Positions 10,417 to 20,645 of a stretch of DNA of 64,000 nucleotides are shown here, one piece after another (the stretch's first letter is position 1; each line of letters begins with the position of its first letter). The position numbers were made by a program, and so were the translations under genes. The stretch comes from an uncultured bacterium (lineage in GTDB: Bacteria > Armatimonadota > UBA5829), in NCBI GenBank assembly GCA_963775535.1, contig CAVZJH010000053.1, positions 19,116 through 83,115 of the forward strand, written 5' to 3'. A model generated the notes under the pieces. That model made no database searches. It saw nothing but the letters and a program-made list of their open reading frames with translations, and was not told the origin of the DNA.

Positions 10417-10734
10417 TTACGTTATTCCGGCTTTTGTCGGGCGAGTTTGGAGTGGAATATCCTCCAAGCTCGCCAGAGCATCGTGCGCTGATTCGAGCAT
10501 CTCTAATAGAGACTCTCCCACCTGCGATTCCTGCCAAGTGTCCGTGCGCTGGTCGAAATAATCCTGCATTTCGGTGGTGGCACCCTCCAGCAGAGCCGAT
10601 GCCGCCTTAATCATGGCTTTCCACCTGCGCAGTCCCGGCACTGATGGGATTGACCCGAATGTCGCCTGAGCGCATCTACCACGATAAGCGGCTTGCCGCT
10701 CGCCATTGGTTTGATACTTCCTCCTCCTTGGCAT
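10417..10734 (-). CDS. Small passenger protein inside the IS
   Basis: RBS aaggag just after the transposase stop; MPRRRKYQTNGERQAAYRGR. Confidence 0.65.
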   Translation of the reverse strand: MPRRRKYQTNGERQAAYRGRCAQATFGSIPSVPGLRRWKAMIKAASALLEGATTEMQDYFDQRTDTWQESQVGESLLEMLESAHDALASLEDIPLQTRPTKAGIT

Positions 10735-10746
10735 GAGCCGCTCCTT

Positions 10747-12055
10747 TCACGCGATGCGCGTTGCTCCTATTTGTCTTCCTGGTCCGGACCTTCTCATGGA
10801 GCTACCTTCGATAGCACTCGCCGATTTGGATGCCATATACACCCACTGGCTTTCCATAACAGCGCGGACCCCTTTTCTCCTTCTCCTTGCCCGGATCGGT
10901 TCCGCGATCTCATTGGCAGGTGCTGTGGCTATCAGCCTTTCCTCGTAGTAGACCCGCCAACTGCCATCTAGGAGTTGCCGCAGTTCGGCTTTTAGGCCGG
11001 CATAGCTTCTCTTGCCGGGTCCAGGTGGAATGTCTATGACGATCCCGTCGAAGCGTATCGCGTTATCGTTGCCCACGCGGGCCCCATACTCAAGGGAAAG
11101 AACGCGCTCCAGATCAAGTCCACGCCTGGGCTTTCTCCAAGCGCTCTGCGTATCCTGCGGTGCCACCGTAAACTTCTCGTTGAACTCCCGCACGAATATC
11201 TCGGCGTATGCGTTTGCTCCAGCAATATCTGTGATACCTTCCAAGCTCAACATCGCGCACAATCTGTCCTGGAGCGTCTTGGAGAGCCTTTCCACTCGAC
11301 CTTTTGCCTGTGGCGTTCCTCGGAAGATAGCCTCGATACTCAGAGATTCCAGCGCCGAGCCGACCTGTGTCGGGTCCTGGCGCCCAGCCAGTTCCTCTTC
11401 GATACTCCAGAAGTCGTCGTTGCGCTTGAGTGATGAGTGACGATCCTGGTAGACGCTCGCCGGAATGCCGTGGCTTGTCACGACACGACGCAGCAGTTCA
11501 AGATATGCCCACGAGCACTCCGCTTCCGTAAAGAACAGCCCCAAAACCTTGCCCGTGGCGTCATCCATGGCAGCCATCGCGCAGCACGCTTCCATACCAG
11601 GGCCAAACCACCGGTGGGGGCTGCCATCCCAGAGCATCATCAGTCCCTCGCTCACTTTCCTTGGCCTTCTCTTGTGATGCTTCCTCGGTCTGCGCTTCAT
11701 CTTAGGCTTAATCCCATCCCCGCGACGAATCCCACGAACCGTCTCCCGTGAAAGAGATATCCCCTCACGCTCCACGAGCATTTCGTGGAAATGACTGTCG
11801 TTGAACAGGCTATAGCGTTCTTCGAGAGGGCCAACACTTTCGAGCGCACTTCATCGCTGATCTTATTCCCGGACTACGGCCCCGGTTGCCGTGCAGCAGA
11901 CCCGCGACGCCATCGCCCTCAACCGACTTTCTAAGCCGCCTGGCCTGACGGTAGCTCACTCCCATCTTCTCTGCCGCCTCACTCAGAGCCACACGACCCT
12001 CCAATACCATCCGCAGCAAGTGATGCCGCGCTACATCTCGCTCACTAATCTCCAT
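10747..12055 (-). CDS. DDE transposase with N-terminal HTH, frameshifted ~11790-11860
   Basis: HGNRGR; WDGSPHRW; MDDATG; YQDRHS; PQAKGRVERL..TLQDRL. Confidence 0.92.
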
Positions 12056-12138
12056 GCCTCCATTCTACAGGAGGACATTATCGCACTGCAGTTAAGGAGG
12101 ACATAATCGCTATGCTACCACATCTTGATTTCCGCCTA

Positions 12139-12167
12139 TTGACAGACCTGCGAAAAGGAACTATAAT
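12139..12167 (+). promoter_or_regulatory. Consensus sigma70 promoter for the DRT2 ncRNA and RT
   Basis: TTGACA (12139-12144), 17-nt spacer, TATAAT (12162-12167). Confidence 0.9.
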
Positions 12168-12173
12168 CTTAGC

Positions 12174-12475
12174 GCTCTCTTGTTTAGCAGGGGAGGAGTG
12201 GCGTTCATGATGTCAACGACTACCTCCACAGCGGCAATCAACCGCAGTGCGATCCGTCCTGGCAGCAGAGCAGTTACCGCCAATACGGCGATGAGCTGCA
12301 CAGATTGCTCACTACTAGCATTGTAGCACATAGTGTTCATACGCGCTTCCGGTTACCGGAATAACGCGCCTTACAGCGTTTTGGCGTGTGCCGAAGAGGA
12401 CTAAAATGGGTTGACGCGATCCCGTGCCTCTTCGGCAGTGCTACATTTGGAGCCACCAGAGAGTAGGCGAGGCAC
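12174..12475 (+). ncRNA. DRT2 ncRNA (template region plus scaffold)
   Basis: ~300 nt between promoter and RT start. Hairpins at 12175-12195, 12192-12227 and 12342-12368. 11-bp stem 12389-12399/12427-12437. Long-range pairs 12322-12329/12438-12445 and 12198-12202/12452-12456. Confidence 0.85.
12209..12340 (-). other. neo: Predicted 132-nt cDNA repeat unit encoding a Neo-like 44-aa repeat (MNTMCYNASSEQSVQLIAVLAVTALLPGRIALRLIAAVEVVVDI)
   Basis: GTTCAT at 12203-12208 and 12335-12340, 132 nt apart. The antisense frame has no stops, and the junction rebuilds TTGACA-N17-TACAAT. Confidence 0.8.
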
Positions 12476-13861
12476 ATGACGGACGACCCTCCATGGTACA
12501 AACGCCGCCGATACAAGCACTTTGATAGGCCGATATCTGCCGGACGTGCCAGCGCATTGGTGTTAGATCCTGACAGCGTCAAACGTCATGGGTCATGCCA
12601 TTTCTCAGTGCCACTCTGGTTACACCACGTTACAGATCATCTCAGCACAAGAATAAGTCTAAGGTGAGGGATATAGCGTATGCTTCCCACCTCGACGCAA
12701 ATGTGTTCTCGTATTACAGTATGCTTCTTTCCATCTCATATGAGCGGGAGTTGGCTCGCCGTTCCATAGGTGATGTGGTACTGGCCTACCGAAAGCTTCC
12801 AGGAGGTAAATGCAATATTGATTTCGCAAAGGATACTTTCGAAGACATCATGCGAATAGGCGAGTGTAGTGTCCTTGTAAGTGATGTCGCCGATTTCTTC
12901 GGAAGTATCGATCACTCCCTCCTCAAGCATGCCTGGTCCAGGTTGTTGGGCAGGAATGAACTTCCTTCTGACCATTTCGCTGTTTTCAAAGCTGTCACGA
13001 AGTTTGCTCATGTGGATCAAGACACCGTGTATCGCCTTTTCAAGATCGGAAAGAGGCGTTCCAAGCAATATTGGGAACCTATCTGTACGGCAGCTGCCTT
13101 TCGTGAGGCGAAACGATCCCCCGAGTTCATACAAGTTAACGGGTCAGGTCGCGGCATTCCGCAGGGGTCGCCAATCAGTGCTCTCCTAGCAAATGTATAC
13201 ATGCTTGATGTCGATACGAGTATGGCTGAGCGGTGCGCAGAGATTGGAGGAGTCTACCGGAGATACAGCGACGAGTATTGCTACTGGTATGTCCAAACAA
13301 AACCCGTGCGGAACTTGAGGAGCTTCTTCGGTCGCAACTGGCTCGGGTTAAACTGGATTTAGCAGCAGGCAAATCTAAAGAGTCATTTTTCTCTTTTGAT
13401 GCCGATGGGTCCCTGCGTACAGATAAGCCAGTCCAGGTACTTGGGTTTCTTGTTCGACGGTCAGCGCATCTTGATCCGCTCTTCAACCATAGCGAAATAC
13501 CACGGGAGGATGCGCCGGGCGATATGCTCCGCTAATGCTGCAGCCCGTCAGAGTTGCCTCTCTGGAGGTGATCCGCGGAGATTCTCCCGCAAAATAATCC
13601 GCCAGTTCAGCGGATTGGGCCGTGCTAGAAAATTACCCCGGTTACGCAAAACGCGCTGCCAAAATCATGGCTGCACCTTCGATCGGAAGACAACACCGCA
13701 AGCACTGGCGAATGCTCAGTAAACTGCTGGACCAACCGGTGTGCAAAAAAGCCTGCGCTTTGTGCAAAGACCCCGATTTCACCAGCCTTTTCAATGAGTT
13801 GGGACATGGCGCAGTAGATGCCCGACACAATTTGTGTCCGTCCTATCCCAGCAATAAGTGA
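12476..13861 (+). CDS. drt2: Defence-associated reverse transcriptase, DRT2/UG2 type, split by ~4 frameshifts; 3' end approximate
   Basis: WYKRRRYKHFD, RDIAYASHLD, AYRK...GKCNIDFAK, DVADFFGSIDH, LP.DHFAVFK, GIPQGSPISA, YRRYSD(D). Confidence 0.88.
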
Positions 13862-13907
13862 CAGCCATAGTCCGGGCTCCTGCCCGGCCTTTCACATCAA
13901 TCCAGCC

Positions 13908-15838
13908 CTACTTCGCCTTCGCCCGTATATAATTCAGCCTTCCCCCGGCCAGCACAACTTCCCGTTCTCTTTCCGAGAGATCGTGCGTGACCTTCACCGT
14001 GACGTTCGCCGTCTTGTCCACCAGATCGAAGGTCGTTTCGCCGCGCTTGAGCGCATCGGCGATGTTCGGTATCTCGACATCGTCGAGCTGGTTGACCAGG
14101 TCGTAAGAGATTGCATCGACCAGCTTAAGCGGGAGAATCCCGAAGTTGACCAGGTTCTGGCGGTGGATTCTGGCGAAGGACTTCACGATTACAGCCTTCA
14201 CCCCCAGATACATCGGCGCGAGGGCCGCGTGTTCGCGTGAGGAGCCTGGCCGTAGTTCTCGCCGCCGAGGATCAACCCGCCGCCATACTGCTTTGCGCGG
14301 CTCGGGAACTCGGGGTCGACCGCCGTGAACACGTGCTCGGAGATCGCCGGAATGTTAGACCGTAGCGGAAGCACCTTGGAGCCCGCGGGCATAATGTGGT
14401 CCGTGGTTATGTTGTCGCCGACCTTAAGCAGGATCTTGCCCGAAATAGTCTCGGGAAGAGCCGTGTTCTCGGGAAGCGGCTTGATGTTCGGTCCGCGCAC
14501 GACCTCTACCGACTCCGGATCGTCGCTCGGCGGGATCACCATCCTGTCGTCCGTCAGGTATTTCTCCGGAGCGCCGTATGTGATCGGCTCACCGAGTTTC
14601 CTCGGGTCGGTGATGACGCCGTTTATCGCCGCGGCCACCGCGACCTCCGGCCCCGCGAGGTAGACCTGCGCGCTTTTGGTGCCGCTGCGGCCCTCGAAAT
14701 TGCGGTTGAATGTTCGGATGGAGACGGCGTTGGTCTTCGGCGACTGGCCCATGCCTATGCACGGACCGCACGCGGACTCGAGTATTCTTGCGCCCGCCGA
14801 AACCAGATCGGCAAGCGCGCCGTTTCTGGAGATCATCTCGAAAACCTGCCTGGACCCCGGAGAGATCACCAGGCTCACCGATGGATGCACGGTTTTTCCC
14901 TTCAGTGCTCCGGAGACGACCATCAGGTCCCTCAAGGATGAATTGGTGCAGCTTCCGATGGCGATCTGGTCGACTTTGGTTCCCTCGACCTCAGCGACTT
15001 TTACCACATTGTCCGGCGAGTGCGGCCTCGCGATCATCGGCGGCAGCTCGTTCAGATCGATCTCTATGACCTCGTCGTAATCGGCGTCAGGGTCGGCTCT
15101 GAGCTCTTTCCACTCGTTCTGGCGGTTCTGAGCGGCCATAAACTCCCCGGTCACCTGGTCGCTGGGGAAAATGGATGTCGTCGCTCCCAGTTCAGCGCCC
15201 ATGTTGGTTATGGTGGCCCTGTCGGTTGCGGAGAGGCTTGCGACACCCTCGCCGCCGTATTCTATGATCTTCCCCACGCCGCCCTTCACACTCAGTATCC
15301 GCAGCACCTCGAGGATAACGTCCTTCGCCGAGACCCACGGCTGCAGTTTGCCCGTCAGCTTTACCAGGCAGACTCTGGGCATAGGCATGTAGAACGGCTG
15401 GCCCGCCATCGCCGCCGCCACGTCCAGACCGCCCGCGCCGATCGCGAGCATGCCGAGGCCTCCCGCGGTGGGGGTGTGGCTGTCCGAACCCAGGAGGGTC
15501 TCTCCCGGGATATCGAACCTCTCGAGCTGGACCTGGTGGCAGATGCCGTTGCCCGGTCGAGAGAAGTAGATGCCGTGCTTCGCCGCCACACTCTGCAGAT
15601 AGGCATGGTCGTCAGCGTTCTCGAACCCTGTCTGGAGGGTATTGTGGTCGACATAGCTCACCGAGCGCCTGGTCTTCACCTTGGGCACGCCGATTGCCTC
15701 GAACTGCAGATACGCCATCGTGCCGGTCGCGTCCTGTGTGAGCGTGTGGTCGATCCGAATAGCGATCTCCTCGCCCGCAACCATATTTCCCTCTACCAGG
15801 TGGTCTTTGATTATCTTCTTTGCTATGCTCAGTCCCAT
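13908..15838 (-). CDS. Aconitate hydratase, frameshift ~14245
   Basis: QDATG, GNGICHQ, DSHT, IGSCTNSS, CGPCIG, NRNF, ITTDHIMPAG, KSFARIH. Confidence 0.95.
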
Positions 15839-15875: not shown

Positions 15876-16465
15876 TTTCCACCCTCACCCCCGGCCCCTC
15901 TCCCTGCCAGGGCGAGGGGAGCTATATATTCGGTATGCAAGCTGTAATGGTCCACGGACTTGTTCCCTCTCCCTATGAGGGCGAGGGGAGCTATCTGGCC
16001 GATATGCAAGCTGTAATCGTTCACGAGCTAGTTTCCTTCCCGCCAGGGCGAGGGGAGCTATCTGGCCGATATGCAAGCTGTAATCGTGCACGGACTAGTT
16101 CCCTCTTCCCGCCAGGGCGAGGGGAGCTATCTGGCCGATATGCAAGCTGTAATCGTTCACGGACTAGTTCCCTCTTCCCGCCAGGGCGAGGGGAGCTATC
16201 TGGCCGATATGCAAGCTGTAATCGTTCACGGACTAGTTCCCTCTTCCCGCCAGGGCGAGGCGAGCTATCTGGCCGATATGCAAGCTGTAATGGTGCACGG
16301 ACTAGTTTCCTTCCCGCCAAAGCGAGGGGAGCTATATATTCGGTATGCAAGCTGTAATCGTGCACGGACTAGTTCCCTTCCCGCCAGGGCAAGGGGAGCT
16401 ATATATTCGGTATGCAAGCTGTAATCGTGCACGGACTTGTTCCCTCTCCCTATGAGGGAGAGGGA
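15876..16465 (+). repeat. Tandem array of ~8 REP-like units of 67-69 bp
   Basis: AGGGGAGCTA-type core at 15915, 15984, 16051, 16120, 16189, 16258, 16325 and 16392. Each unit has a ccctctccc..gggcgaggg hairpin and a conserved linker. Confidence 0.92.
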
Positions 16466-16565: not shown

Positions 16566-19500
16566 TTATCGAGATGCATCCAGCACATATGCCCGAATGC
16601 GCCTCTTGTCTCCAGACAAGTCAGATGCTTGGTTTTCAAGGAATGTCCTCGCCTCTTCCATGCTCTTTATTTGAGCTCTGCTTGCGTTGCAGCCATTCCA
16701 GTCTGCGCTGCTAAACCAGCCGACAAGGTAGAGGCCGCACTGACACTTGTTCTCTTTCAGATATCGATTCACCAACTGGCTTTCCATCGCGGTGTAAAGT
16801 TCTTGGTGCCAGTTTCCCTTCACCTCAATAACCACGGATACGACCCTGTGATCTGCGGGCCCGTCCGAGGCACTGGTTCGGACGAGGATATCCGTCTGCT
16901 CGCCTGCACGCGAACCGTACCTGGGACGAATCTCGACCTCCCTGTTGAGAATGATCCCGCTCTTTTCCAGATCGCTCCTGAGGTGGTCTGCCACATAGTC
17001 TGAAAGCCGGTTCTCCTCTTTTGGTTTGCACTTTCCGTTGCCGAGGTCATCCCACACGCAGAATAGTTGAGGAGTCTCCCCGTGAAGTCGCTGCTCCAGG
17101 CGGGCGATAGATTCAATAACCACGTTGAGAAGTTGCTCTTCCGTTTGAACGAGCCGAACCCGAGAATTGCCCACGATCTGCAGCAGTTTCCCCGGCGTCG
17201 GCGGCATCCATGTCCGCTCCAGATTCGCTTTTCGCGCTTCAGTAAGCACATTCTCCATCCAGTCAAGTTCAGGCAGCGCATCCTTGATTTTCAAGACTGC
17301 CTCAACAGCTCCTATGCCTGCCAGGTAGCTGCTAACACTACCCTTCCACATATATCTCGCTTCAACCGGACCTACGGACCCGTAAAGAGCTATGTTGTGT
17401 TCATTCGGATAACAGCGCTCGATCCAGATGTAGAGATCAGCATAGTTGTCTGGTGTCATTTGAGCCGTAGCGACTTCGTTTCCCCAGTGTCTGGTCATTA
17501 CGAGCCCATTTACGACTAGCTTGCCGAACTCCTCATCCTTCTGGATCGCTGGCCACACTACGCTCCACCCTGCATCAGAGGAATACAGCATCAGGCTCTG
17601 CGCCGCAGCCACAGCTTTTTCCCTTTTGCCGGGATCGGAGATGTCGATCAATGATTCCGCGAATTGCTTTGCCGCGGGATGGTTGTGTCCCAATAGAACG
17701 GCGAGCAGTTTCTTGAGGCAATCCAATGGCAGGTCTTCTTCCATGCACTTCTCAGTCAATGCATGTGCAACGACATCGTCCCAAACAACTTCGGTGCTCC
17801 GCGCCACTGTACTATAGTGGGTCGCCGCGAGCATCGCGAGTGCACTCCTTACTTCATCGGGAACCCGGCGGTAGGCGCTGACGAGAAGCAATTTGGCAAC
17901 ATCCGTGTTGTCCAACTCGACCCCCGCCACTATTACAGGTGCCCAGCGGTGCCATAGCTCATCGGGAAGCTGAAGCAAGTGTTCAAGCCTCTCCTTGAAA
18001 AGCAGATGCAGAGCCCGATAGCCAGCGTAGGCCGGGCGATAGTTCAATATCCAGGTCGTAGGGAACCAATTATCCGCGTTTGGGTCAGTTCGGGCGATAT
18101 ACATTTCCGCCAATGCTGTAATGTTGCACCGAGTCTGCTCATCAGCATTTCGCCAGCCAGGAAGCTCGGTCAAGTCCCTATCACGGGATGATGATCCATC
18201 CTCGTTCAGTCCCAACACCCAGGTGATCTGCCACCACGCCGCCATCTTTCCATTCTTGCCGTCGCGGAGGGAACGCTTGAGCCGTCGTGAAGGTGACGGC
18301 CCTTTGCGCTCTTCTCGTGCGTACACTTTGGACGCCTCTACTTCTGCCTCATATGCATTCTGCATCTGTCGGGCCAGGTCTGAGTCGAGTTCTACCGATA
18401 GAGGCGGCCATGCGTACTCTCTGTCGAGAATGCCGTTGGCCCGGCGGGCTTCAAGAATGGCGTCCAAACCTTCGGGCGTCGCCAGGTTCGCCGTATGCAC
18501 TATCAGCTTTGCCAAGAATGTCTGCACAGCCTCATTGCCTTCGGATTCGAGATATGATATGAGCAGGGGAAGGTCCTGCGGCTTGATCAGTGGTCCATGA
18601 TAACGCGGTCCTGTAGGCTCGACGCCTTCTTCTATCGCGGCAGCGATCACGTCGGGCAGTATCTGCTGACGTTTGCTATCGTCCTCGGGTACATCGACGT
18701 TTTGGTACCGGTTCACTTCGCTCACCAAAGTGAGAGCAAGGCTTTTCGATACTCCCGGCGTTTCCAGATTGTTCCAAGCCTGCTCGATAAGTATGTCTCT
18801 AATCCTGTCAGACCAATAAGCCTTGTCCCTGGACGGCAGACTGCGAGCCCATTCCAACACTTTCGGTAAATCGGAAGGCTCAATACCTTTGAGGAAATTG
18901 AAGTGCAGGAATACCTGGTAAGCGCCGGTCAGGTGGGTATTCTTGGGCGGTGCAAGCACTGCAAGGAGTTCTTCCGTCGACACGCAATCCGGCCATATCG
19001 CTGCCAGGCAGGTTCCTATGATTTCGTCATCCGGGTCGTTCTCGATGTTGTTGGCTACAAAAGGTGCCAGTTTGTTTCTAACCTCACGTGGGCAGCTCAC
19101 CCTGATCGCGTCGGCGGCTCTGGCCCTCAGACGTGGTGGTTTGGTGGAGTCGAACACAATATCCAGCAAATCATCGGCGAGTGCATTAAGGCAGCAATCC
19201 GCCGCGATTTCGAGCGCAAGATATTTAGCGCCTTCGAAGGTCGCCTCGCTGCCCAAATACTCGCGGATGATGTTGCTCAGTCCATCGTGATCAAGTTCCT
19301 TGTAAGAATATGTGTCTCGCGGAAACGCCCCGCGCCGATTGTAGAGATCGAGGAGAGCATGTGTAAGAGCAGATTTGTCGGGGTCCGAGACATTTGTCAG
19401 ACCTACTAAGAGCAGGGCCTCGGGATCAGCTTTAAGGAGGAGTTCGAAATGCTCATGGTCCAACTCCGTAAACCACGCCGCAACGCCCCGCAGCTTTGGT

Positions 19501-20645
19501 ATAAGCGAACCTTTCGGGTGCAGGAGAAGGCTCTTGATCTGTTCGACGGGCACTTTGCGGTGGACCATGTACCACGCCGCCAGATACTCCGCGTAGGTCT
19601 GGTGACCCCAATATACGCTATCTCTGCCGTATCGGCGGAAAAGTCCGGTGTTGAGCGTATCTCGAACGGCTTTGCTCTTGACATCAAAACTACTATCATC
19701 GACCGATTCCGTGTCCCCGCAAATATCCTCAACCATTACGCAACCGTTATCGGGACAATGCACACTGTTGGAGCCGAGCCATATTGCTGACTTCGCTCCG
19801 AACATGGTGATTGCAGCTATGCGACCGGCCATTATTAACCGCTGGTCGCTGCTCATTTGTTCGTGAGCGCGCCGCGCGTCTGTGATCTCTTCACACAGGC
19901 GCAGCAGGCCATCGTGCATAAGCTCGACCTGACTGGAGGAGAAGCTCTTGTCTTTCTTATACTGCTTCAAAAGCATTGTCAGGGATAATGGCTTCGATGC
20001 CAGCACTCTGACGTTCTTGTCATCGATCTCCCGCAGGAATGCCTCCGGGTCAATTTCATTCATACGGGCAGCTTCTTCAACGTCTTTTTGCCGTAGCGGG
20101 GCCAGCCCGTATACCTGATATCCATCTCCCCAAGCAGCCTTTAGGACATCGTTCAAGCTCTTCGGCCAGTCCGCGATGCGGCACGCGATGCGCAAGCGCA
20201 GCCTGTCAACTGAATAGCGGCAAAGCTCAGTCTCAAGAATATTGGCCTTGCTATGGACATCCAAAGGTCCCTCGTCAAGACTGTCCAGGAACAGTTGAAG
20301 CACGTGATCCCCACTCACCCATCCCCGAAAGAGAGGGTTTTCGAAGATGCGCTCCTTCAGCATTATGTCGCTGACGATCCTGCCGGTGTCAATTGGCAGG
20401 CACACGGTATTCGCGGCCGCGTGTTCTTCTTCCCTAAAGACAGTTGATTTGCCGATACCCTGCTCTCCCAGTATCACTACACATGGGGCTTCAAAGAGCG
20501 CATCGGATGCCACCAACTCAGGATTATAGTAATGGCCGTACTCGGCGTCCGGGTCGGGCAGGAAGTCGCTCGGGAGGTTCAGTTTCTTATCGACGGGGTA
20601 GAAGAGCCGTTTCCAATTATACAGGGGCTGGTCTGAGGCCATCAC
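16566..20645 (-). CDS. STAND/NACHT-like NTPase with helical repeats and a C-terminal PD-(D/E)xK-like nuclease domain
   Basis: Walker A GEQGIGKS; Walker B LFLDSLDE; C-terminal EENRLSD...NREVEI...TDILV...IEVKGNW. Confidence 0.8.
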   Translation of the reverse strand: MMASDQPLYNWKRLFYPVDKKLNLPSDFLPDPDAEYGHYYNPELVASDALFEAPCVVILGEQGIGKSTVFREEEHAAANTVCLPIDTGRIVSDIMLKERIFENPLFRGWVSGDHVLQLFLDSLDEGPLDVHSKANILETELCRYSVDRLRLRIACRIADWPKSLNDVLKAAWGDGYQVYGLAPLRQKDVEEAARMNEIDPEAFLREIDDKNVRVLASKPLSLTMLLKQYKKDKSFSSSQVELMHDGLLRLCEEITDARRAHEQMSSDQRLIMAGRIAAITMFGAKSAIWLGSNSVHCPDNGCVMVEDICGDTESVDDSSFDVKSKAVRDTLNTGLFRRYGRDSVYWGHQTYAEYLAAWYMVHRKVPVEQIKSLLLHPKGSLIPKLRGVAAWFTELDHEHFELLLKADPEALLLVGLTNVSDPDKSALTHALLDLYNRRGAFPRDTYSYKELDHDGLSNIIREYLGSEATFEGAKYLALEIAADCCLNALADDLLDIVFDSTKPPRLRARAADAIRVSCPREVRNKLAPFVANNIENDPDDEIIGTCLAAIWPDCVSTEELLAVLAPPKNTHLTGAYQVFLHFNFLKGIEPSDLPKVLEWARSLPSRDKAYWSDRIRDILIEQAWNNLETPGVSKSLALTLVSEVNRYQNVDVPEDDSKRQQILPDVIAAAIEEGVEPTGPRYHGPLIKPQDLPLLISYLESEGNEAVQTFLAKLIVHTANLATPEGLDAILEARRANGILDREYAWPPLSVELDSDLARQMQNAYEAEVEASKVYAREERKGPSPSRRLKRSLRDGKNGKMAAWWQITWVLGLNEDGSSSRDRDLTELPGWRNADEQTRCNITALAEMYIARTDPNADNWFPTTWILNYRPAYAGYRALHLLFKERLEHLLQLPDELWHRWAPVIVAGVELDNTDVAKLLLVSAYRRVPDEVRSALAMLAATHYSTVARSTEVVWDDVVAHALTEKCMEEDLPLDCLKKLLAVLLGHNHPAAKQFAESLIDISDPGKREKAVAAAQSLMLYSSDAGWSVVWPAIQKDEEFGKLVVNGLVMTRHWGNEVATAQMTPDNYADLYIWIERCYPNEHNIALYGSVGPVEARYMWKGSVSSYLAGIGAVEAVLKIKDALPELDWMENVLTEARKANLERTWMPPTPGKLLQIVGNSRVRLVQTEEQLLNVVIESIARLEQRLHGETPQLFCVWDDLGNGKCKPKEENRLSDYVADHLRSDLEKSGIILNREVEIRPRYGSRAGEQTDILVRTSASDGPADHRVVSVVIEVKGNWHQELYTAMESQLVNRYLKENKCQCGLYLVGWFSSADWNGCNASRAQIKSMEEARTFLENQASDLSGDKRRIRAYVLDASR

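Follow-up and report, generated by a model that had tools for sequence, protein, structure and literature searches.

A DRT2 reverse transcriptase locus in an uncultivated bacterium and a CRISPR spacer matching the junction predicted for its concatemeric product

The 64,000-nt window analysed here (contig CAVZJH010000053.1, from an uncultivated bacterium of the Armatimonadota) carries at 12139-13861 what is very probably a DRT2 (UG2) anti-phage locus, in which a noncoding RNA (ncRNA), by rolling-circle reverse transcription, would yield complementary DNA (cDNA) that rebuilds a promoter and a 44-codon repeating frame, neo. DRT2 and neo are known from two papers of 2024. DRT2 loci number in the thousands, 13,034 having been collected in one preprint, and as a DRT2/neo locus the present one is a further member. 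What is unusual is the evidence. A spacer of a type I-E CRISPR array in the same assembly holds the head-to-tail junction of the predicted concatemer, an experiment-free confirmation, at base resolution, of rolling-circle reverse transcription in an uncultivated bacterium.

The assembly was searched with the DNA of its own ncRNA, which returned the locus itself and one exact match of 21 nt on another contig, C86, in the CRISPR array listed in Table 1. Spacer 7 of this array, counted from the cas2 side, is an exact 32/32 substring of the antisense concatemer, the only one of the 30 spacers to be so, and is absent elsewhere in the 3.785-Mb assembly; no other spacer has a match of more than 19 nt in its own genome. 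The spacer is oriented in the neo sense. Its 5' flank in the concatemer is AGG, and the third base of this protospacer-adjacent motif (PAM) is the last base of the preceding repeat. The protospacer covers the -35 element, all 17 nt of the promoter spacer and, of the -10 element, the first three bases. The non-genomic junction that the first-pass annotation of this DNA had proposed to look for was found in this form, at the predicted coordinates. Spacer 7 is the predicted junction, and therefore a 132-bp concatemer was made in vivo, by a jump at the GUUCAU pair and with a period of 132. A cell of the lineage contained DNA with precisely this junction, and Cas1-Cas2 took it up. For 38 nt of the locus, spacer 7 also serves as a second, independent reading, and it agrees with the contig.

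The geometry of the unit was read from the sequence and agrees with the first-pass annotation in all that it states on the sequence. The two GTTCAT copies lie 132 nt apart. On the minus strand TACAAT is upstream of TTGACA, which leaves a single copy without a promoter, and head-to-tail joining gives TTGACA, a 17-nt spacer ending in TGC, and TACAAT. Frame 0 of the antisense concatemer is free of stops and encodes a repeat of 44 amino acids starting MNTMCYNASS; both other antisense frames are closed by stops, and one sense frame is open, without an ATG. The core of that annotation (a DRT2 template, a jump at GTTCAT, a rebuilt promoter and an endless 44-amino-acid frame) is supported by the enzyme family, the geometry and the spacer. 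GGAGG does lie 14 nt before the junction ATG, but by position the candidate start module is not this ATG; it is GAG-N6-GTG, the counterpart of GGAG-N6-ATG in the units of the ACA-type loci described below. The Neo unit in the genome forms the first 44 codons of a 59-amino-acid open reading frame (ORF; 12161..12340). A single-sequence AlphaFold model of this ORF consists of one long helix and is weak (mean predicted local distance difference test score 70.8, predicted template modelling score 0.29). The grand average of hydropathy of Neo is 1.10, inside the family range of -0.27 to 1.36, and the more hydrophobic Neo that had been proposed was not borne out. A jump at ACA triplets was also considered. 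The four triplets (12228, 12300, 12328 and 12373) are spaced, as counted by hand, by 28, 45, 72, 73, 100 and 145 nt, of which only 45 and 72 are multiples of three; no promoter is rebuilt by any of them, and they are excluded by spacer 7.

The frequency of such arrangements by chance was estimated on both strands of the window (128 kb), using reversed promoter halves with at least 11 of 12 consensus matches, a 17-nt spacer and a unit length of 90-160 nt divisible by three. Five places passed the strict scan, and only at the present locus was a flanking direct repeat of at least 4 nt found (6 nt). A relaxed scan gave 147 candidates, of which 106 had an open frame and two a repeat of at least 5 nt. 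The open frame alone is weak evidence, because so many of the relaxed candidates have one. The case rests on the position of the unit between a DRT2 promoter and a DRT2 reverse transcriptase (RT), on a geometry held in common with homologues and on the CRISPR spacer.

In the mechanism proposed, the RT would copy the 132-nt template from its 3' end. Once GUUCAU-1 had been copied, the 3' end of the cDNA would re-anneal to GUUCAU-2, which has the same sequence and lies just downstream of the template, and synthesis would restart, giving head-to-tail cDNA with a period of 132 nt. When double-stranded, this product would contain TTGACA, 17 nt and TACAAT at every junction, and a transcript antisense to the ncRNA would read through the stop-free 44-codon repeat to give Neo, predicted to form hydrophobic helices. 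By analogy with KpnDRT2, the Klebsiella pneumoniae system described below, a phage would serve as the trigger, the RT would synthesize the second strand, and promoter activity, translation and growth arrest by Neo would follow. The coordinates of the features are given in Table 1.

Table 1. Features of the DRT2 locus, of the CRISPR array and of the adjoining insertion sequence. Positions are those of the window unless a contig is named.
Feature	Position	Strand	Remarks
Template unit, 132 nt	12203-12334	+	Junction of both ends stored in CRISPR spacer 7
Jump motif 1, GUUCAU	12203-12208	+	Core UCA 12205-12207, counterpart of ACA-1; core 3 nt before the -35 half, as ACA-1 in L026-L029 and L032
Jump motif 2, GUUCAU	12335-12340	+	Core UCA 12337-12339, counterpart of ACA-2; core 11 nt after the -10 half, as ACA-2
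-35 half of junction promoter, TTGACA	12211-12216	-	Neo frame reads Val-Asp-Ile
-10 half of junction promoter, TACAAT	12320-12325	-	Preceded by TGC after joining; neo frame reads Tyr-Asn, as it does TATAAT in the ACA-type loci
Neo repeat unit, 44 codons	12209-12340	-	Stop-free across the junction
Candidate ribosome site and start, GAG-N6-GTG	12299-12310	-	Downstream of the -10 element and in the neo frame; proposed from position
Spacer-7 protospacer, half A	12203-12225	-	PAM AGG 12225-12223; spacer positions 1-20 = 12222-12203
Spacer-7 protospacer, half B	12323-12340	-	Spacer positions 15-32; the halves overlap in the 6-nt GTTCAT
Type I-E CRISPR array	G000:C86:25059-26913 (L056 10560-12414)		30 spacers (32 nt in 28 cases) and 31 repeats of 29 nt
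Sigma-70 promoter of the ncRNA-RT operon, TTGACA-17 nt-TATAAT	12139-12167	+	12/12 consensus matches
DRT2 ncRNA, about 300 nt	12174-12470	+	Ends approximate: start placed from the -10 element, end just before the RT start codon
5' handle hairpin, 9 bp	12175-12195	+	In minimum free energy and centroid folds
3' scaffold	12324-12444	+	Rfam RT-12 match weak, with 22.6 bits (E 0.2, 4227 families; gathering score 44.2)
DRT2 reverse transcriptase	12476-13861	+	Follows the ncRNA directly; frame broken by 1 nt at four places, near 12590, 13274, 13437 and 13600-13630
Insertion sequence element	10650-12122	-	Integrase-type transposase; ends 17 nt upstream of the -35 element of the DRT2 promoter

KpnDRT2 of Klebsiella pneumoniae, as described by Tang et al. 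(2024; bioRxiv 10.1101/2024.05.08.593200) and Wilkinson et al. (2024; PMC12039810), resembles the present locus in its RT, which is of the same family, and in the single promoter for ncRNA and RT. Its ncRNA likewise has a 5' handle hairpin and a template lying between two identical short motifs, and its 3' scaffold of hairpins and a pseudoknot has a putative counterpart here. Also common to the two are -10 and -35 halves in reversed order from which a 17-nt spacer arises on joining, a unit whose length is a multiple of three and an antisense frame that is hydrophobic and free of stops. From the same descriptions, the KpnDRT2 unit is 120 nt, whereas it is 132 nt here, its jump motif is ACA, whereas here it is UCA within GUUCAU, and its start codon is ATG, whereas the candidate here is GTG. 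The host also differs, being uncultivated and of another phylum-level group, and the present locus is known from its sequence alone.

The operon promoter is the sole promoter-like site in 11900-14000, and a similar promoter was found in the same place in three homologues (L015, L017 and L013). The arrangement of the sequence indicates that this one promoter drives the ncRNA and then the RT. The ncRNA is structured (fold z-score -2.49), and its elements follow the order of DRT2 ncRNAs. The 5' hairpin has a counterpart at the matching place, 7-8 nt before jump motif 1, in the ACA-type loci, L015 and L017. The 3' scaffold consists of a hairpin at 12347-12361, a small hairpin and a long hairpin with its stem at 12390-12399/12427-12436, and a putative pseudoknot may form between CGCG at 12342-12345 and CGCG at 12415-12418. 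On a reading by eye, with place and order of the scaffold correct, four of the five pairs of the pseudoknot could form, one of these by way of a double change; the MAFFT alignment of ten scaffolds was poor in the first hairpin. In six other DRT2 loci the Rfam model RT-12 starts exactly at the second ACA, and RT-12 is therefore, in practice, the 3' scaffold of the DRT2 ncRNA. The model RT-6 was observed to span the 5' handle and the -35 half of clostridial DRT2 RNAs. Two Rfam 'RT' motifs of unknown role, RT-6 and RT-12, are in this way parts of DRT2 ncRNAs.

All five pieces of the RT match PADLOC Drt2 in order, best with PDLC03757 (2.8e-88; profile positions 112-327) and also with PDLC02173 (2.5e-81), and the enzyme matches PDB entry 9c0i ('Antiviral reverse transcriptase Drt2', the solved KpnDRT2 enzyme) at 2.2e-55. 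The lesions that separate the pieces are all single-base indels within 1.39 kb, and none is a nonsense substitution. The catalytic YSDD reads RRYSDE and then shifts, owing to a 1-nt indel in the second Asp codon, and the conserved LLLVCP... follows the shift. Breaks of this kind are found elsewhere in the assembly: rpoB (C64:50629-55008) is in four pieces with internal stops, rpoC (C64:46483-50480) is in two frames, cas3 and cas5 on C86 are each split into two ORFs, and the aconitase-family gene adjoining the RT (13908-15838) is likewise split. Long intact ORFs are also present (for example 1359 amino acids at 16566-20645), and the assembly errors are patchy. Because rpoB, rpoC, cas3 and cas5 are broken alike, we regard it as highly likely that the four frame breaks of the RT are assembly errors, and the enzyme probably does not need the repair that had been foreseen for its expression. 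Gene breaks in this assembly, with its patchy single-base indel errors, should not be taken as pseudogenes.

Relatives of the RT were collected from genome contigs (five loci, 36-37% identity), metagenome contigs (seven loci, 35-48%) and IMG/VR (20 loci). Among 401 genomes of the phylum a match was found in five, the window's own genome included, the best at 46% identity. No relative of more than 48% RT identity was found in the genome contigs, the phylum genomes, the metagenome contigs or IMG/VR. Two partial matches (L024 and L025), one locus with no upstream DNA (L030) and a group of matches of at most 28% identity or short length (L037-L045) were left out of the locus comparison.

At 35-47% RT identity the layout could be aligned by eye. 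The RNA strand of five IMG/VR loci with ACA jump motifs (the ACA-type loci, L026-L029 and L032) reads handle hairpin, 8 nt, ACA, 3 nt, TGTCAA, template body, ATTATA, 11 nt, ACA and TTTGCGG. The order in the window is the same, with both ACA triplets replaced by UCA, each embedded in GUUCAU. The motif core is followed after 3 nt by the -35 half in the window, in L015 and in the five ACA-type loci, and after 4 nt in L017; the -10 half is followed after 11 nt by the position of the second motif core in all ten aligned loci. The codon register is also common to the window, the ACA-type loci, L033 and L013, the -10 element being read as Tyr-Asn (or Tyr-Ser or Tyr-Asp) and the -35 element as Val, Ile or Leu followed by Asp. 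The 6-nt, non-ACA jump homology proposed in the first-pass annotation was upheld as to the 6-nt identity and the UCA core, but it is not an unrelated hexamer, UCA holding the positions of ACA-1 and ACA-2. The alignment indicates a change from A to U in both motif copies and additional identity in their flanks. Tang et al. (2024) give identity between the two jump motifs as a functional requirement, which UCA at both cores of the window fits; with its motif altered in both copies, the locus lends natural support to the rule of two identical motifs.

Reversed promoter pairs with a 17-nt spacer were also sought in the homologues with no filter for a length divisible by three. The unit predicted from the best pair was divisible by three in 20 of 24 homologous loci, many of which are related to each other and are not independent. 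The distinct unit lengths are 87, 117, 126, 132, 144, 147, 150 and 159 nt. The exceptions are L011, in which the upstream region is replaced, L016, which has no promoter halves, L017 (107 nt, or 108 nt with an 18-nt spacer) and L018. The most common DRT2 unit length is 117 nt, and units of 111-129 nt are reported, in Wilkinson et al. (2024). The longer unit had been put forward as a divergent trait; at 132 nt it is not exceptional, L033 having the same length and the homologue scan extending from 87 to 159 nt.

L015, from the same order as the window's genome (RT about 46-47% identical), has GGCGUUCA before its -35 half, as in the window, and GUU 9 nt after its -10 half; the layout of handle, promoter and pseudoknot is also as in the window. 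It differs in its unit of 144 nt and in its two motif copies, which are identical only in GUU. The motif of L017 is GUGU(U/A)CA. The ACA-type loci and L033 have motif and promoter spacing identical to those of the window. They differ from it in their units (117 nt; 132 nt in L033), in their motifs (ACA/ACA; ACA/GCA in L033) and in the RT-12 score, which is 77.5-97.4 bits as against 22.6 in the window, and their RT identity to the window is 42-45%. In the clostridial-type loci (L009, L010, L012, L019-L023 and L034-L036) the units are 144-159 nt, ATTG or a longer repeat replaces ACA, the neo frame is in another register to the promoter halves, and RT-6 of Rfam forms the 5' part. In the upstream RNA regions of L016 (G056; 44% RT identity) and L018 (G143; 33%) sigma-70 promoter halves could not be recognised; these two loci may use another promoter type or mode of expression.

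Three other explanations were weighed. It is unlikely that the locus is a dead DRT2 remnant, with real frameshifts in the RT, a concatemer made only in the past and a spacer that is its fossil. Four 1-nt indels within 1.39 kb, one of them in the catalytic motif, an insertion sequence (IS) just upstream of the promoter, and the prospect that a spacer against a toxic product could accompany selection to lose the system would all suit such a remnant. The same type of lesion is nevertheless present in rpoB and rpoC, which are essential and single-copy, and in cas3, cas5 and the aconitase-family gene; the window's IS copy is broken, yet three of six other copies are intact; and the RT has suffered single-base indels only, while all elements of the ncRNA are intact. 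The spacer could instead derive from ordinary DNA with two tandem units, in a chromosomal duplication of a sibling cell or in a foreign replicon. CRISPR adaptation is silent on how the acquired DNA arose, and a 6-nt microhomology could mediate a duplication, but we judge this origin very improbable: the join is exactly where the DRT2 mechanism predicts it, at the positions homologous to ACA-1 and to ACA-2, and no other join both yields a promoter spacer of 17 nt and preserves the frame. A chromosomal target with an interfering PAM would moreover be self-targeting. No tandem copy is in the assembly, spacer 7 has no exact match in IMG/VR, and the array as a whole has no match in the phage or plasmid collections. 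Coincidence, by which repeat, promoter halves and frame would have come together by chance in a structured ncRNA that the RT uses otherwise, can hardly be credited. Open frames are common in this G+C-rich window, as the relaxed scan showed, but a 32/32 agreement of the spacer with the predicted junction, a geometry and codon register in common with the ACA-type loci, and a flanking repeat in one only of the five strict candidates in 128 kb all speak for a DRT2 template.

Several points weigh against the DRT2/neo reading. The physical evidence is one spacer, and the genome, assembled from a metagenome, has a completeness of 73.55% and a contamination of 2.63%. Locus (C53) and array (C86) are on different contigs, and their composition is compatible with one genome and no proof of it: the G+C contents are 0.559 and 0.574, and the tetranucleotide correlations to the bin mean 0.990 and 0.971, respectively, the minimum in the bin being 0.927 and the median 0.981 (64 contigs). 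The spacer proves the junction; it is no proof of how long the concatemer is, nor that it is transcribed or translated. The GGAGG of the junction ATG is poorly spaced, and the RT-12 match is below the Rfam gathering score. For the SL2 half-stem of KpnDRT2 (UGU before ACA-1) no counterpart able to pair with motif 2 was found in the present ncRNA, and on inspection of sequence and fold no complement of motif 2 adjoins motif 1. The RT frame is broken four times in the assembly, once in the second Asp codon of YSDD. Finally, the relatives found, at no more than 48% RT identity, are too distant to show whether the present Neo is conserved.

A tentative possibility, which we regard as rather doubtful, is that the type I-E system is armed against the product of its own cell's DRT2 and could selectively destroy toxic neo DNA. 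The full protospacer (AGG and 32 nt across the rebuilt neo promoter) is peculiar to the concatemer, in which every 132-bp repeat has one; in the chromosome there are the PAM and 20 matching bases, followed by three matches in the last 12 (our count). For E. coli, strong Cascade binding without interference or priming is described when mismatches lie at positions 19-32, and priming only when they lie at 25-32 (PMC5904413). Each 132-bp repeat of the concatemer would be a full target while the chromosome is probably spared, because E. coli Cascade binds such partly matching targets without cutting. If the proposal is true, it could mean exit from DRT2-induced dormancy or tolerance of leaky cDNA, with one immune system as the antidote or off-switch of another. 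The spacer may have been acquired incidentally, in adaptation on abundant linear DNA, or have been selected as an antidote to Neo. In either case, a cell in which the double-stranded concatemer was made lived on and had descendants. CRISPR adaptation may sample DNA made by defence RTs, which CRISPR may then target, and CRISPR arrays may be natural recorders of such products. Searches of three other DRT2 host genomes (G198, G316 and G401, that of L015 among them) with their own ncRNA DNA returned the locus only, in all three, and no junction-derived sequence was found elsewhere in the L015 genome. No report of spacers matching DRT2 cDNA was found in the literature, supplementary files lying outside the scope of that search.

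The array comes after a complete set of cas genes, identified with NCBIfam as cas3, cse1, cse2, cas7, cas5, cas6e, cas1e and cas2e; the E-values of the type I-E families are 2.6e-107 for Cas1e, 6.4e-82 for Cas7 and 8e-41 for Cse1. The orientation of the repeats to cas2 is as in E. coli K-12 (NC_000913.3), and the repeat end motifs are similar. Only two repeats, 3 and 14, are variant, and in each the sole difference is in the last base, which in type I-E systems comes from the PAM (Swarts, 2012; PMC3338789). AGG is described for E. coli type I-E as an interfering PAM and as one of the five commonest non-AAG PAMs in naive adaptation (Musharova, 2019; PMC6568314). The one protospacer known for the C86 array is the junction, and its PAM is AGG. 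Naive adaptation of type I-E in E. coli, as described in these sources, is similar in its 29-nt repeat, 32-nt spacers, 5' PAM, PAM-derived last repeat base and use of AGG; the donor here differs, being not a phage, plasmid or chromosome but a cDNA-only sequence from a defence system of the same cell. When 36 genomes of the order were searched, matches were found in six, all to the repeats of related arrays or to the array itself, and no Rfam family matched the array. Two pairs of spacers are identical, 19 with 20 and 27 with 29. The stop codon of cas2 is only 10 nt from the first repeat, and no leader is visible at the cas2 end. A solitary copy of the C86 repeat, together with the 5 nt that follow repeat 24, was observed at G000:C49:19303-19336, perhaps a second array that is empty, perhaps a remnant of assembly.

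The IS element upstream of the locus is present in seven genome copies at 99% identity, and the 439-amino-acid frame is intact in the three copies mentioned above; the window copy is set apart by two 1-nt deletions and a scrambled patch (11314-11323), all private to it. On the other side, a tandem repeat with a period of 69 nt (15896-16450; 8.1 copies, 90% identity) lies between the aconitase-family gene and the 1359-amino-acid ORF. This ORF is on the minus strand, 2.7 kb from the DRT2 RT, and has a P-loop-like motif, GEQGIGKST, near its N-terminus; a defence gene of the STAND/NLR type, within a defence island, is a possible identity.

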